Positions 1,158 through 11,504 of a DNA stretch of 64,000 nucleotides are shown here, piece by piece. Each line of letters opens with the position of its first letter. Positions within the stretch are counted from its first letter, which is position 1. A model generated the notes under the pieces. The model was not told the origin of the DNA and did no database searches. It saw only the letters and a program-made list of their open reading frames with translations. Source of the DNA: a virus (lineage: Duplodnaviria > Heunggongvirae > Uroviricota > Caudoviricetes); IMG/VR virus record IMGVR_UViG_2541047873_000001, one strand, 5' to 3'. A program made the position numbers and the translations under genes.

Positions 1158-1234
1158 GATGGTGTAGCTCAGTAGGATAGAGCAGCAGCCTTCTAAGCTG
1201 TCGGTCGGTGGTTCGAATCCACCCACCATCGCCA
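1158..1234 (+). tRNA. tRNA-Arg (anticodon TCT)
   Basis: Cloverleaf by eye: 7 bp acceptor gatggtg/caccatc, D-arm gctc..gagc, anticodon loop cttctaa, T-arm ggtgg-ttcgaat-ccacc, encoded CCA. Confidence 0.8.
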
Positions 1235-1239
1235 ATTTA

Positions 1240-1326
1240 GGGGAGTTAGTCCGTAGGGGTAGCGGGGTAGACTGTAAATCTACTGTCATTGCGACTCGGA
1301 TGGTTCGACTCCATCACTCCCCACCA
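1240..1326 (+). tRNA. tRNA-Tyr (anticodon GTA), type II
   Basis: Acceptor ggggagt/actcccc, anticodon stem gtaga/tctac with loop ctgtaaa, long variable arm, T-loop ttcgact, encoded CCA. Confidence 0.75.
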
Positions 1327-1330
1327 AATT

Positions 1331-1406
1331 GCCGGTTTAGCTCAGTTGGTAGAGCGCCTGCCTTGTAAGCAGGATGTCAGCGGTTCGAGTCCGTTAACCG
1401 GCACCA
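1331..1406 (+). tRNA. tRNA-Thr (anticodon TGT)
   Basis: Acceptor gccggtt/aaccggc, D-arm gctcagttggtagagc, anticodon stem cctgc/gcagg with loop cttgtaa, T-loop ttcgagt, encoded CCA. Confidence 0.8.
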
Positions 1407-1414
1407 ACACAACA

Positions 1415-1488
1415 GGTAAGGGTATTTTGCGACGTCGGAGATCGCCGAGCTTGGCAGAGGGTTCGAATCCCTACGAAGTACCCTTACC
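1415..1488 (+). ncRNA. tRNA-like element (degenerate tRNA or structured small RNA)
   Basis: Perfect 10 bp closing helix ggtaagggta/tacccttacc enclosing a D-arm-like hairpin (gcga..tcgc) and a canonical T-arm (aggg-ttcgaat-ccct), but no anticodon arm can be fitted. Confidence 0.3.
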
Positions 1489-1594
1489 GTTGTGATGAAT
1501 GCACAGGCTGATGTGCCGCAACTACAGTAGTGCGCGCTTTGCGGGGCTTGCTACAACCCTGTGTCGGAGTTCAGCACCGACCATCACAATCACT

Positions 1595-1681
1595 GGAGAG
1601 TAGGGAGCATGGTGCTCAAGCGGTCTTGAAAACCGTCCCATTGCGCAAGCGATGATGGTTCGATTCCATTACTCTCCGCCA
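1595..1681 (+). tRNA. tRNA-Ser (anticodon TGA), type II
   Basis: Acceptor ggagagt/actctcc, anticodon loop cttgaaa, long variable arm, T-arm atgg-ttcgatt-ccat, encoded CCA. Confidence 0.75.
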
Positions 1682-2110
1682 GCGCAACGTTAAGAGTATT
1701 TGGCTAATTAAGCGAATGCCGGAAGCAGAACCGGATCACCAAATGCGTACAGGCGTCATCGCCGCCCAGTCAGCCAAATGCTCTTACCATTGCGGTGAAT
1801 GCGGCTAAGCGCACGCGGAACAGTTAAAACAGTAAAGGTGGTCTTTTTACTGGCGTAACGAGAATCCATAAGTGATCCGGCGTTAATTGTTAACTGGTTA
1901 ACGTCACCGGGAGGCACCCGGCACCGCAACCTAACAGCAATGGCGTTTTGTCTTAAAAGGTGGCTGCAAGTGATGGATTTTTGGGCGTTTGCCGATAAAA
2001 ACCCGGAGTGGACATTATTGTTTCTGCTGGTGGTTGCATACGGGGTAGAGCAAGCGGCAAAAGCCTTACGCGGTTCTGGCAAAAAGCGTAAGCGTAATTA
2101 ACAGTAATCT

Positions 2111-2186
2111 GGCCCTTTAGCTCAGTGGTTAGAGCGGGCGACTCATAATCGCACGGTCACCGGTTCAAGTCCGGTAGGGGCCACCA
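2111..2186 (+). tRNA. tRNA with CAT anticodon, most likely tRNA-Ile2 (lysidine type) rather than Met
   Basis: Acceptor ggccctt/aggggcc, D-arm gctcagtggttagagc, anticodon loop ctcataa, T-loop ttcaagt; body closely resembles E. coli ileX-type tRNA; P1 also encodes a tRNA-Ile. Confidence 0.7.
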
Positions 2187-2638
2187 CATTTGGTTGTAAC
2201 ACGGCGTATGGCACATGCGTCGTTAGCGGTCTGGTGTAGCTGTTAGGTACCTTTTACTAACACTGCATGGGCACACCAGGTAGCCGGAATGTGCAAGCCC
2301 CGTTCATAGCGTCGGACTGCGGATTCACCATCCTGGCGATTCGGTGTGACAGCCGGAAGAGCACGGCGTACAACAGGAAAAGGCGTTTAATTAGCGTGAG
2401 CGCCGTTTCCGTTGTGGTAATTGCGGCTATGCGCTCGTGACGAAGCCATTTTCATTCACTACGTTCTGATAAGTGTCGTCGCCGGGCGTGGCTAACCTGG
2501 CAGGTGGAGGCACCACCGCCACAACTCCTTTCAATTCATCATATAGCCGCTCAGGCTGTAACCCTTAATTAATACGAAGTTACGACGTCACTACCGGTTC
2601 AGCCGGGGGATAGTCGCGCGTGTAAAAAAGGAGACGTT

Positions 2639-3214
2639 ATGTTAACGGCGAACGATAACGCGTATTTAGAAGATGATCTCGTTTTGAGTGACTTTATAGG
2701 GCGACGAGAATGCTGGACGCAAAAGCGCGAGGAGCTTTATGCAGCGTTAGTTCGTAAAGGCGTCAACATCGAAACCGCACAGAACGGTGATATGACAGTG
2801 GTAAGTGTTGGACTGCACGGCGTAAGTGTGTCAGCAATCAATCATGAGCCGTACATTGCGTTATCCGAGTCGATGGTAAGGTTAGTTAAGTTCCTGAAGT
2901 ACACAGAAGCGAATAACGTGCTCATCGCCAAAAAGAACATCCCGTTCTCATCGGCCTTTTACTGGATGATGAAGGGGCTTGATGCCCGGCGAACATCATG
3001 GCCTAAAGGGAGCTATATATCGATGCTCCGTGGCAGTGTTGGTAGCAAAGAAAAGCTCGTCGAATTCCTGCCGGAAGAGGCATTCGATATTGTTGAAGGT
3101 TGTGATGTGATGGTTATGCCTCGCCTGGTAATGATGAATGGGGATTTACAGGCGCAGACAGACTGGTTTGCAACTGGAGTTGATATTATCGCTACTGACT
3201 GGGAGGTTTTTTGA
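2639..3214 (+). CDS. hypothetical protein with DUF2829-like C-terminal domain
   Basis: 191 aa ORF; C-terminal half has W..G...RR.SWPKG and terminal TDWFATGVDIIATDWEV signature resembling DUF2829 (Tad2-type) domains. Confidence 0.5.
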   Translation: MLTANDNAYLEDDLVLSDFIGRRECWTQKREELYAALVRKGVNIETAQNGDMTVVSVGLHGVSVSAINHEPYIALSESMVRLVKFLKYTEANNVLIAKKNIPFSSAFYWMMKGLDARRTSWPKGSYISMLRGSVGSKEKLVEFLPEEAFDIVEGCDVMVMPRLVMMNGDLQAQTDWFATGVDIIATDWEVF

Positions 3215-3594
3215 TGTACGAGGCTACTAAATTACGCACTGAGGATGCGATGCACATTGGTTGGGACATCATCACCTGCAAGATAACATCATGCAAGGCT
3301 ACACGCACAGACGCCGGACACAAGAGCACAATATCAGGTTATGTCGTGATGTCAGTCAGGAGTGTGCGCATACGCTTCAGATGGAAAGCCAGCCAGGTTA
3401 CATCATCAATGCCGCTTACCGTCGAGCAGGATTATTTATGCTTACCCGAAATAGACGGAGCGTTGCTGGTGGGCAATAGTGGTCGAAAAGCCGATTTTGA
3501 AGCCAGTCTGAAGATGGCGCAGGCGGTGATCAACAAACATAAAGGGAAGTGGGAGGCAAAAGTTAAGCATGTTGTTCGTTTATCCCGCTGGTAG
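3211..3594 (+). CDS. hypothetical protein
   Basis: 127 aa ORF whose ATG overlaps the upstream stop (TGATG coupling); no recognisable domain. Confidence 0.35.
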   Translation: MMYEATKLRTEDAMHIGWDIITCKITSCKATRTDAGHKSTISGYVVMSVRSVRIRFRWKASQVTSSMPLTVEQDYLCLPEIDGALLVGNSGRKADFEASLKMAQAVINKHKGKWEAKVKHVVRLSRW

Positions 3595-7000: not shown

Positions 7001-8038
7001 TTACCAGAGTTTTGCCGCGTACATCGTTTGTGTGAATGTGTACCCATAGCGTTCTTCAACGCTTTTACCGTATTTTTTCCTGGCTTCAGTAAGGCGGATG
7101 CCTGTCAGGTCATCGCCGGAGGCAATCATAACTTCCAGTAGTTCCAGGTCCATTTTATCCAGCCTTGCCATTGCATCTTTAGCCTCTTGAATTTTCCGGC
7201 TAACGATCTGGTGTATGGCTGGATCGGCTTCGGCCAGCATTTTATCTGATTTGTTTTTTAAACTCTGATTGCGGATATCAATGTTTCTCAGGATATATGA
7301 CTTCACGACATAGCTTGGCTGCTGCTTTTCCAGATCACGAACCCGATAAAGGTCAAATTCGCCGAGAAGTCCGCACGGAAGCGGTTTAATGCCAGTGTAA
7401 ATGGTAAGGGTGCGGCGCTCACCAACGTTGTTAACAACGGGAATCTCTGTGTTTGCTTTTTTTGCAAAGATCAGCGCACCGTGCGTACCCACTCTGAAGC
7501 GTGAAAGTCCATTGTTGCCCTCGATATTGGTGGTAATCACCACATCGGTATAACCTTCTTTTCTTGCGCGGTATACCTCGCCCTCACGTTCAGCGGCGAA
7601 GAATCTGCGTTCTTCTTCAAGCGCACCGACAACCTGTGAAAATATCCTGTTTTTCATGCTTTTCTTTATAGTTTTATCGTATTTTTTCAACAGGTCTTCG
7701 CGCGTAAATGTTCTCGTTGTGGTTGCGCTTTGCATAACGATATGCGTACTCTGATTAGTATCCTCAACAATGAATGGGATCGGTAAATAAACCGACTCAA
7801 CAATGTTTGAGGCTTTGTCATCATCCTTGCGACACAGATCAACAAAGGCTTTCCATTCGGCTACGCATTTTTCAGCTTCTTCTAATACAGCCGGATCATG
7901 TGTTAATGCAACATGGCGAAATTCCTCGCCAACATAACTGGTATCATGGAAAACAGAGTTTGCGACCACCAGCTCTTTCCACCGTTCAGCGGTTTGCAGG
8001 AACCGTTTGTACTCATTCTCGATCGACTTCTTACTCAT
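7001..8038 (-). CDS. c1: C1-like immunity repressor (by position)
   Basis: About 345 aa from the internal MSKK start (track ORF extends to 8326 with no better start); lies between pacB and the recombinase as c1 does in P1; operator-like sites flank its promoter. Confidence 0.5.
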   Translation of the reverse strand: MSKKSIENEYKRFLQTAERWKELVVANSVFHDTSYVGEEFRHVALTHDPAVLEEAEKCVAEWKAFVDLCRKDDDKASNIVESVYLPIPFIVEDTNQSTHIVMQSATTTRTFTREDLLKKYDKTIKKSMKNRIFSQVVGALEEERRFFAAEREGEVYRARKEGYTDVVITTNIEGNNGLSRFRVGTHGALIFAKKANTEIPVVNNVGERRTLTIYTGIKPLPCGLLGEFDLYRVRDLEKQQPSYVVKSYILRNIDIRNQSLKNKSDKMLAEADPAIHQIVSRKIQEAKDAMARLDKMDLELLEVMIASGDDLTGIRLTEARKKYGKSVEERYGYTFTQTMYAAKLW

Positions 8039-8056
8039 TATTCCTACTCGATTTAG

Positions 8057-8067
8057 TTTTCTAACAT
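8057..8067. promoter_or_regulatory. C1 operator-like site (c1 promoter region)
   Basis: ttttctaacat core; a second inverted copy (tattagaaaa) lies at about 8131-8140. Confidence 0.45.
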
Positions 8068-8233
8068 AAAAGTCCTGTGACAAATTTATGCCGAATAACA
8101 AGGTGAGTAAAGGATAAAACCGCTTTTTTTTGATTGTTCCTATTAGAAAATGTAACCAGGAGCGGCTACCGCATGGCTGACGGATTTGCGAAGTGATCTG
8201 GTCGGTGTTTTTTTGGGAAAAAGTCCCGATTTC

Positions 8234-8265
8234 TAACTTTAAATAATTGGCATTATTTAAAGTTA
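8234..8265. other. rox-type site-specific recombination site
   Basis: taactttaaataat-tggc-attatttaaagtta: perfect 14 bp inverted arms around a 4 bp spacer, about 150 bp upstream of the recombinase gene; matches my recollection of the Dre target rox (reverse complement). Confidence 0.8.
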
Positions 8266-8417
8266 GGCTATAATCTCCAGTAAACAGGCAGTATTGACAA
8301 GGATGAAAAATCATGCCTCGAATCAAAGGCTTGAATTTTGAAAATTAACTTATAACTACCCTGTCAGTTTTCTATTTTTCACGTAGCGTTATCTGTATAT
8401 AGAGGTTTAATAGTTTC

Positions 8418-10853: not shown

Positions 10854-11504
10854 ATGAATAACATGCCAACGAAAGAGCTTTTTAAGTTCCTTCCCAAATA
10901 CAAAGCTCACAAAAACGTTAGTGCATCGAAAATCAAAAATGTTGTTATTTTCGGCGTAACTGATGCCCCACTTTGGGGCTGCATCGAACTCGTTGAACCA
11001 AAAGGGGCAACAGTTTGTGTTGACGCAATGTTTTTACAAAAACACCGACCAAAAACTGGCGGGTATCTGATCGTTTATGAAAACGGTTATCTGTTCTATG
11101 CCCCGGAGAAACCATTTGAGGAATGCTATGGCCTGGTTAACGACGCCTCCAAAAATGGAACCACGGTCATCATTACGGATGACAACGGCGTGATGATTAA
11201 TCTTACTGGGAGCGTAACTATTTCTGCTGGTGGCATCACCACCCAGCAAGAAGAAATCGACCTTGAAGCAGCCGACTTCTCTGATGCGCTAATGTGGTTG
11301 AAGGAAGGCAAGAAAGTTGCCCGACGCGAGTGGAAAGGCGAAAAGCAATTCTGCTGGTTAGTTCTCGCTGGAAGCGTCAATTTACACGGCATTCACGTTC
11401 CTTATGGTGACCATTTTGTATTGAAAGATGCACAAAATATGGACAGCGTTTGGTTGCCGTCTGTGGATGATTTACTGGCCTGTGACTGGTTTGTTGTGGA
11501 GTGA
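10854..11504 (+). CDS. DUF2829 (Tad2-like) domain protein
   Basis: 216 aa; C-terminal about 75 aa FSDALMWLKEGKKVARREWKGEKQF ... WLPSVDDLLACDWFVVE fits the DUF2829 pattern; N-terminal about 130 aa unknown. Confidence 0.6.
   Translation: MNNMPTKELFKFLPKYKAHKNVSASKIKNVVIFGVTDAPLWGCIELVEPKGATVCVDAMFLQKHRPKTGGYLIVYENGYLFYAPEKPFEECYGLVNDASKNGTTVIITDDNGVMINLTGSVTISAGGITTQQEEIDLEAADFSDALMWLKEGKKVARREWKGEKQFCWLVLAGSVNLHGIHVPYGDHFVLKDAQNMDSVWLPSVDDLLACDWFVVE

Follow-up and report, generated by a model that had tools for sequence, protein, structure and literature searches.

The 64,000-nt stretch of viral DNA analysed here (IMG/VR record IMGVR_UViG_2541047873_000001; hereafter the window) derives, as judged from its sequence, from a D6-like phage-plasmid of the P1 type, and its open reading frame (ORF) at 2639-3214 on the + strand is the homologue of orf6 of Escherichia phage D6. 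The 191-aa product of this gene comprises two domains: an N-terminal one (aa 1-97; 2639-2929, +), which belongs to no Pfam family, and a C-terminal one (aa 103-190; 2945-3208, +), which by profile matches and predicted fold is a member of the Tad2 family of phage sponges, proteins that take up signalling molecules of bacterial immunity. What is new is a narrow, syntenic, two-domain variant of Tad2 with a remodelled ligand pocket, carried by P1-like phage-plasmids. We lean towards the view that this protein is a sponge for a nucleotide signal and probably binds its ligand in a non-canonical manner.

Tad2 sponges are a main route by which phages blind signalling immunity, and the range of their ligands is still being mapped. 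The clade described here keeps the stacking tryptophans of the family, lacks through loss a phosphate contact that all characterised members have and possesses an extra domain. Its study could bring to light a novel ligand or sponge domain. The clade is also compact and easily testable: its protein is found in E. coli phage D6, which can be cultivated, and in over 120 phage-plasmids of known sequence. The carriers of the clade spread as plasmids among clinical Enterobacterales.

A Tad2 domain in the C-terminal half

The Pfam profile PF11195 ('Tad2-like', formerly DUF2829) matches aa 103-190 with 40.4 bits (E 4.4e-10) over positions 3-72 of its 73, against a curated gathering cut-off of 25 bits, which bears out a preliminary description of this DNA that had called the product DUF2829-like. 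The same profile scores above the cut-off in all 34 members of the clade formed by the protein and its homologues. A comparison of the clade profile with the whole PDB retrieves Tad2 chains only, namely SptTad2 (E 2.2e-7), AcrIIA7/HgmTad2 (2e-6), ModTad2 (3.5e-6) and SPO1 Tad2 (7e-6); scans of the protein with NCBIfam and PADLOC give no useful match.

The predicted structure points in the same direction. A confident AlphaFold2 single-chain model built from the 34-sequence alignment (mean predicted local distance difference test score, pLDDT, 89.2; predicted TM-score, pTM, 0.72) consists of two domains, of which the second (aa 98-190) is modelled as a helix and a set of strands followed by a short C-terminal helix and strand. 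The elements of the Tad2 fold, i.e., an N-terminal helix, an antiparallel sheet and a short C-terminal helix plus strand, are thus all present in the modelled C-terminal half. Foldseek aligns the model with SPO1 Tad2 at a TMt of 0.74, and the top matches in BFVD are Tad2-like viral proteins, several of which (190-270 aa) align across both domains.

The preliminary description had also drawn attention to a motif pattern in common with the product of a second, more canonical Tad2-like gene of the window (10854-11504, +; 216 aa, 'DUF2829 domain-containing protein' in RefSeq), whose Tad2 domain at aa 141-215 matches PF11195 with 66.7 bits. Both proteins indeed carry the pattern, as YWMMKGLDARRTSWPKG at aa 108-124 and TDWEVF at aa 186-191 in the 2639-3214 protein and as MWLKEGKKVARREWKGE and CDWFVVE in the other, but its spacing is similar rather than identical. 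Since a direct BLASTP comparison is not significant (E 0.5), the relatedness of the two proteins is visible by profiles only: hhalign places the orf6-clade profile on the second protein with 94.9 % probability (E 4.3e-8, aa 97-191 against 136-216), and weak PHROG matches to phrog_872 and phrog_1048 are common to both. Outside this region the two were said to be unrelated, and for the N-terminal halves BLASTP and the PHROG comparison confirm it. The profile-profile alignment and the HMM search thus agree in placing the C-terminal half with PF11195 and not in an unrelated family. The family observation of the preliminary description stands; the separate N-terminal domain and a family assignment already present in RefSeq had been overlooked.

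A remodelled ligand pocket

In SPO1 Tad2, the ligand is stacked by W25 and W73, its phosphates and hydroxyls are contacted by N26 and D79, and T78, S76, H71, D67, I63 and T65 also take part (bioRxiv 10.1101/2023.05.01.538930). The corresponding contacts of HgmTad2 are W21/N22/G23, W87, L88, S90, T92 and D93, and the mutants W21A/N22A and S90A/T92A/D93A lose the binding of glycocyclic ADP-ribose (gcADPR). In addition, the insertion domain of HgmTad2 harbours a separate cyclic-dinucleotide pocket formed by R31, D34, L36, K46, S47, F70 and N85 (PMC10680739).

A joint alignment of the clade, the four solved Tad2s and the second Tad2-like protein of the window has invariant columns at A106, G113, R118, W121, W176, A185, D187 and W188, with D182 nearly so. 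The stacking residues W25 and W73 of SPO1 Tad2 align with W121 and W176, and D79 with D182. The surroundings of the first tryptophan have changed: all four solved Tad2s read G-W-N-G-K, compared with S-W-P-K-G in the 2639-3214 protein and W-G-K-G in a group of homologues from Pantoea, and across the clade the residue after the tryptophan can be P, R, D, M, N, G or H. Further downstream, SPO1 S76/HgmTad2 S90 is replaced by T179 and T78/T92 by V181. A search seeded with canonical Tad2 sequences returned at least 7,999 matches, and WNG occurs in 113 of the best 120, a count that is biased because these 120 are nearly all HgmTad2-like. The insertion of about 35 residues that separates the early strands from the M-P-R-L-V strand resembles that of HgmTad2 and SptTad2 in being long, and it has an L-P motif in common with them. 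In the second protein of the window the motif reads W-K-G, with the Asn replaced by Lys, and S and D are found at the later positions. The two proteins therefore differ in their pocket residues both from each other and from the canonical pocket. Li et al. predicted about 1 % of the short Tad2s to be non-functional for gcADPR binding, which puts the clade into an unusual minority.

A conserved gene of one phage-plasmid branch

The ORF proposed in the preliminary description is a real gene. It runs from an ATG at 2639 to a TGA at 3212-3214, and a Shine-Dalgarno sequence, AGGAG, can be read 5 nt upstream of the start (2629-2633, +), which is kept in D6 and in the E. coli plasmid NZ_CP085065. The product (RefSeq WP_021551771.1) is 92 % identical in amino acids to D6 orf6 (YP_009914683.1), and phrog_7362 matches it over its full length (E 4.8e-131). 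Comparison with phage D6 and with plasmid NZ_AP027678, two D6-like lineages at a dS of 0.45-0.63, yields ratios of nonsynonymous to synonymous divergence (dN/dS) of 0.083 and 0.101, respectively, and the gene is thus under strong purifying selection.

Homologues are few. A word-index search with the single protein finds D6-like relatives only, at 86-97 % identity, and an exhaustive HMMER scan of 1.84 billion cluster representatives (E<=0.001) gave just 18 clusters. One of these, P0012, was rejected as spurious: it is a repetitive, eukaryote-like protein of 4941 aa in which the weak scores of the repeats add up over 16 stretches. Genuine members are 190-270 aa long and align over both halves at 26-46 % identity, and a profile search added the Pantoea group, with proteins of 194 aa on contigs of 92-116 kb. 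By tblastn, the protein is carried by 127 plasmids (97 of Escherichia, 16 of Salmonella, 6 of Shigella, 5 of Pantoea, 2 of Enterobacter and 1 of Acinetobacter), mostly of about 85-97 kb and in all but two cases (125/127) typed as non-mobilizable; among GenBank phages it is present in D6 only.

The position of the gene is conserved. It lies between the darB/ulx anti-restriction block and lpa-pacA-pacB both in the D6-like plasmids and in a P1-like plasmid of Pantoea. On the latter replicon, of 92.5 kb, a homologue with 24 % identity follows a darB-like helicase gene and a pmgS-like gene and precedes lpa, pacA, pacB and the gene of a C1-type repressor. Within one branch of the P1-like phage-plasmids, orf6 is a gene of conserved position.

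A putative sponge and the alternatives

A Tad2-family sponge for a nucleotide signal is the most likely function of the gene product because of the fold match, the conservation of the pocket tryptophans and aspartate over deep divergence, the purifying selection and the anti-host setting provided by darB and ulx; we hold it to be moderately probable. By analogy with the characterised members of the family, we infer that the C-terminal domain would oligomerise and thereby form inter-subunit pockets, in which W121 and W176 would sandwich a nucleotide-derived immune second messenger and D182 would bind the ribose hydroxyls of the latter. The protein would thus exert an anti-defence role by keeping the messenger from the host effector during infection by, or induction of, the D6-like element, so that abortive-infection defence, i.e., Toll/interleukin-1 receptor (TIR) systems of the Thoeris type and possibly the cyclic oligonucleotide-based antiphage signalling system (CBASS), would not be triggered. 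Since the clade has the Asn of the WNG motif deleted and does not preserve the cyclic-dinucleotide contacts of HgmTad2, the mode of ligand binding is probably not the canonical one, and the ligand may be a molecule other than 1''-3' gcADPR, His-ADPR or cGG.

Several observations weigh against a sponge. The Asn that contacts the diphosphate in SPO1 Tad2 (N26) and HgmTad2 (N22) is deleted according to the alignment, leaving W121-P-K-G, and D182 is changed to S or C in four members of the clade. None of the cyclic-dinucleotide contacts of HgmTad2 is conserved, the residues aligned with them being L130, S133, G135, E142, F143, V159 and T174 in an alignment of low confidence within the insertion. 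Canonical Tad2 tetramerises via helix alpha1, which in the model is preceded by a domain of 100 residues. A consensus scan finds no sigma-70 consensus promoter upstream of the gene, and Thoeris is not known to be common in E. coli.

The alternative that survives best, although we consider it unlikely, is that the Tad2 fold no longer acts as a sponge here and that a protein with a degenerate pocket serves another role in P1-like elements, e.g., as a regulatory or morphogenetic accessory tied to the expression of lpa and pac. Besides the lost Asn and the variable residue after W121, such a role would fit the fixed place that the gene has, even among very distant P1-like elements, beside the genes of the late activator and of packaging, and its putative translational coupling to the downstream orf5 homologue. 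However, at 20-25 % identity the residues that remain invariant are the two pocket tryptophans and the C-terminal A-x-D-W, with the Asp kept in most members, which is the pattern expected from selection on a ligand pocket, and PF11195 proteins are not known to have any other function.

Somewhat less probable still is that the clade is a sponge of new specificity, for example with its pocket remodelled by deletion of the Asn and retention of the tryptophans to accept a TIR signal for which no sponge is known, such as N7-cyclic ADP-ribose (N7-cADPR). This molecule is the signal of type IV Thoeris, which occurs in E. coli; Tad1, SPO1 Tad2 and ModTad2 neither sequester the signal nor inhibit the system (bioRxiv 10.1101/2024.10.24.620036). 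If the clade had such a specificity, orf6 and the second Tad2-like protein would constitute a multi-signal anti-defence set on one replicon.

The N-terminal domain could also make the protein a bifunctional sponge, in which a second signal-binding module allows two defences to be neutralised as in the Acb4-Tad2 fusions, a possibility of similarly low likelihood. Fusion of a sponge with another sponge domain is frequent (10.1101/2024.01.03.573942; PMC10680739; 10.1101/2025.07.12.664507), and fusions of Acb4 with Tad2 have been reported to be frequent and bifunctional (10.1101/2025.07.12.664507). Acb4 itself is a sponge of cyclic GMP-AMP (cGAMP) with a fold resembling the dsRBD, a domain that binds double-stranded RNA (10.1101/2024.12.30.630793). 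Residues 11-91 of the orf6 product are modelled as two helices, three strands and a long helix (alpha-alpha-beta-beta-beta-alpha), and thus in the same dsRBD-like alpha-beta-beta-beta-alpha class as Acb4, but this fold is very common. The Acb4 family profile PF13876 matches none of the 34 or 16 sequences at E<=1 or E<=10, whereas the positive controls, SPO1 gp1.3 and five homologues from N4, phiV10, a P1-like phage, Xanthomonas phage CP2 and Erwinia phage Fifi450, all match. With the N-domain profile, hhalign reaches 8.3 % probability against SPO1 Acb4 and 0.9 % against the six-member Acb4 alignment. Moreover, the extended beta3-alpha4 loop bearing the cGAMP contacts of Acb4 (V56, Y57, F62, N63 and I66) is missing: about 5 residues separate beta3 from the long helix, and the hhalign gaps at this place amount to 9 and 2 residues. 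The weak hhalign scores, the missing ligand loop and the matching controls mean that the N-domain is not a detectable Acb4, and it was rejected as such at the level of detection. Its best sequence-profile link is instead to 1r7l of the Phage ABA sandwich family, PF18066 (hhalign 55 %, E 1.2e-4, 62 columns), which lies below Pfam detection.

A type I toxin of a toxin-antitoxin (TA) system, as suggested by RefSeq, is very improbable. RefSeq names the identical protein of NZ_CP085065 (99.9 % nt identity) 'MW1434 family type I TA system toxin', and MW1434 (81 aa) of the S. aureus phage phiSa2 indeed appears as a predicted type I toxin in a bioinformatic list (PMC6266405). However, the name stems from this bioinformatic classification only, and the list predates the proof that DUF2829 proteins are Tad2 sponges; structural and biochemical work has since established the family as soluble sponges that form tetramers (10.1101/2023.05.01.538930). 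The orf6 product, with its 191 aa, is predicted to be a globular alpha/beta protein devoid of a membrane helix, and no antisense element was identified. Type I toxins, in comparison, are short hydrophobic peptides. Furthermore, the homologues from Pantoea now bear the NCBI name 'Thoeris anti-defense Tad2 family protein'; close homologues on other plasmids and the D6 gene are named 'hypothetical protein'. Size, globular prediction and the sponge biochemistry of the family effectively refute the toxin reading. The RefSeq name is outdated and misleading for PF11195 proteins and is corrected here. By way of this name, databases already imply the family assignment.

Least credible of all is an anti-CRISPR of the AcrIIA7 type that would inhibit Cas9. 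The hosts concerned, Escherichia, Salmonella, Shigella and Pantoea, are not known to have type II CRISPR-Cas, which counts against it. Moreover, AcrIIA7 is HgmTad2 and has been reinterpreted as a gcADPR/cGG sponge (PMC10680739; 10.1101/2023.05.01.538930).

Two Tad2-type genes on one replicon

The closest relative in the PDB of the second protein's Tad2 domain is ModTad2 (9eib), a His-ADPR sponge (E 7.5e-11). Its gene is found in 269 plasmids, including P1-like ones that do not carry orf6. Both genes occur about 8 kb apart in the same accessions (e.g., NZ_CP104667, NZ_CP021537, NZ_CP116989 and NZ_CP134379), and D6 has both. A pair of different Tad2-type genes is thus stably retained by D6-like elements. 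That two copies stand for two different ligands or defence targets, as surmised in the preliminary description, is plausible because the ligands of the family have diversified to gcADPR, His-ADPR and cyclic dinucleotides (bioRxiv 10.1101/2023.05.01.538930; 10.1101/2024.01.03.573942; PMC10680739), the pockets of the two proteins differ and the genes co-occur stably in many D6-like plasmids.

The second protein also has an N-terminal half of its own. Its residues 5-105 (phrog_11049) are homologous to stand-alone proteins of about 90 aa from phages of Ralstonia, Klebsiella, Pseudomonas and E. coli, one of which is annotated as a capsid decoration protein, with a weak PDB match to Dec; D6 matches the second protein at aa 100-216 only. 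By the logic of fusion to a sponge, this N-terminal half is another candidate module.

Genetic context

At the DNA level, the region of the window shares 83.5 % identity with Escherichia phage D6 and 99.9 % with NZ_CP085065. It is matched by 119 plasmids from Escherichia, Salmonella and Shigella, which measure about 90 kb and are nearly all typed as non-mobilizable. The annotated gene order in D6 and NZ_CP085065 is darB-like SNF2 helicase, ulx, pmg genes, tRNAs, tciA/tciB, orf6 and orf5, followed by lpa, pacA, pacB, c1, a Cre-like recombinase gene, dut, the gene of the DUF2829 protein and doc/phd. The similarity to D6 and the plasmids, together with this order, is the reason for considering the window a P1-type phage-plasmid.

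The gene directly downstream (3214-3594, +) encodes the 127-aa homologue of D6 orf5, which matches phrog_7004 at aa 2-127 (E 4.3e-73). The stop codon of the Tad2-like gene and the ATG of the orf5 homologue overlap as TGATG, an arrangement suggestive of coupled translation, and in D6 orf5 likewise adjoins orf6. The orf5 homologue is much less conserved than orf6 (60-75 % nt identity), and in the 99.9 %-identical plasmid RefSeq annotates just a 61-aa remnant of it.

Upstream, five tRNA genes are clustered at 1158-2186 (+): Arg-TCT, Tyr-GTA, Thr-TGT, Ser-TGA and Met-CAT. The D6 annotation has three tRNAs at the equivalent place (Asn, Thr and Ser). An Rfam match to the sRNA STnc100 at 1791-1928 is sub-threshold (40.8 bits against a gathering score of 47). 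The C1-like repressor is called mechanically as an ORF of 441 aa from a TTG (7001-8326, -), but D6 and RefSeq annotate about 345 aa and the extra length of the call probably reflects a spurious upstream start. Nowhere in the window is there a match to the P1 C1 operator consensus.

A structured RNA leader upstream of the gene

About 255 nt upstream of the gene lies a structured leader of about 113 nt (2271-2383, +), recognised by covariation and tentatively part of the transcription unit. It is composed of an invariant GGUAGCCGGAAUGUGCAAG box, a variable hairpin, a pseudoknot of the H type and a hairpin whose loop reads GAAGAG. Across 30 diverse sequences, 94.3 % of the cells are paired, compared with 21-47 % in slid controls, and double compensatory changes are seen in 8 of the 17 pairs. 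The 360 bases 5' of the gene are 94-100 % identical among three lineages with a synonymous dS of about 0.5. A 19-mer of the leader is found in at least 120 IMG/VR contigs, and a 359-base upstream query (2280-2638), whose first ~90 bases are leader, matches 56 GenBank phages and 569 plasmids. The leader corresponds to no Rfam family at E<=1 and to no tRNA, and may represent a new class of phage leader RNA.

The covariance model of the leader matches the window, D6, the Pantoea plasmid upstream of its Tad2-like gene and phiV10 upstream of an Acb4-like gene. A put antiterminator was considered and rejected: the leader is not recognisable as one because the model finds nothing in HK022 or in bases 20000-49576 of HK639, which include the annotated putL-like RNA, and GGAAGAG is absent at the HK022 put sites. 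A sponge-specific leader was rejected as well. Among 120 listed loci, the downstream genes are RdgC-like in 33 cases, members of an uncharacterised family in 31, DnaB/Ban in 10, Acb4 in 9 and Tad2 in 8, so that a Tad2 or Acb4 gene follows in only 17. In view of these mixed downstream genes, the leader looks like a general element of accessory or early operons and not like a sponge-specific switch.

A terminator-like hairpin found by consensus scan directly follows the leader (2382-2404, +), a single site that is not above chance expectation in the region and hence no more than suggestive; in D6-like elements it comes after the leader. Leader and hairpin together are consistent with antitermination or riboswitch-like control. 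Between leader and gene, a second conserved non-coding piece at about 2410-2525 (+) is 100 % identical among D6-like lineages and shows 73-80 % identity to unannotated DNA of the Klebsiella phages SopranoGao, LASTA, SJM3, Kp4866-6 and ZX1.

Comparison with known systems

The orthologue in phage D6, orf6/phrog_7362, has the same place and the same neighbours as the gene of the window and is annotated as hypothetical only. Among characterised proteins, SPO1 Tad2 (gp34.65; PDB 8SME/8SMF/8SMG), the founding Thoeris anti-defence 2 sponge, has PF11195, the fold and the A-x-D-W motif in common with the orf6 protein. However, it is a single domain of 89 aa with W-N-G and a short insertion, as opposed to 191 aa, an extra N-terminal domain and the ~35-residue insertion in the orf6 protein, from which the Asn is lost and in which T179 and V181 stand for S76 and T78; the profile E of the pair is only 7e-6. 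ModTad2 (PDB 9EIB), which sponges His-ADPR against type II Thoeris, is likewise a single domain that keeps WNG and is much closer in sequence to the 10854-11504 protein than to the orf6 protein. The best profile matches, from 2e-7 to 2e-6, are HgmTad2/AcrIIA7 and SptTad2 (PDB 8KBI-8KBM, 8WJC and 8WJD), which also bind cGG/cGAMP. They resemble the orf6 protein in their long insertion and its L-P motif (F-L-P145 versus S-L-P), but neither the cyclic-dinucleotide contacts nor N22 of HgmTad2 are kept in the latter.

With respect to the N-terminal domain, the Acb4-Tad2 fusions, such as that of Pasteurella phage Pm86 (10.1101/2025.07.12.664507), provide the same fold class in the same arrangement, and they differ in that the orf6 N-domain is not detectable by PF13876 and is without the Acb4 ligand loop. 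The Phage ABA sandwich domain, represented by the Bacillus cereus prophage protein 1R7L, gives the best sequence-profile link, which offers no mechanistic explanation.

Sponge genes cluster in other phages, as judged from their gene order. In N4 (locus L013, 275-947), gp48 (PF13876, Acb4) is directly followed by gp49 (DUF2829, Tad2). In Stenotrophomonas phage Philippe (locus L017, 507-1638), a Tad2 gene and a small membrane-protein gene are followed by the gene of an Acb4-Sequestin fusion (PF13876 and PF21825), which lies beside the small terminase gene. Finally, the Punavirus vB_EcoM-813R1 (locus L012, 1378-1737) encodes a canonical Acb4 (PF13876, E 1.1e-33) after upfB/ppfA, and the presence of Acb4 in this P1-like phage means that P1-type elements use several sponge families.

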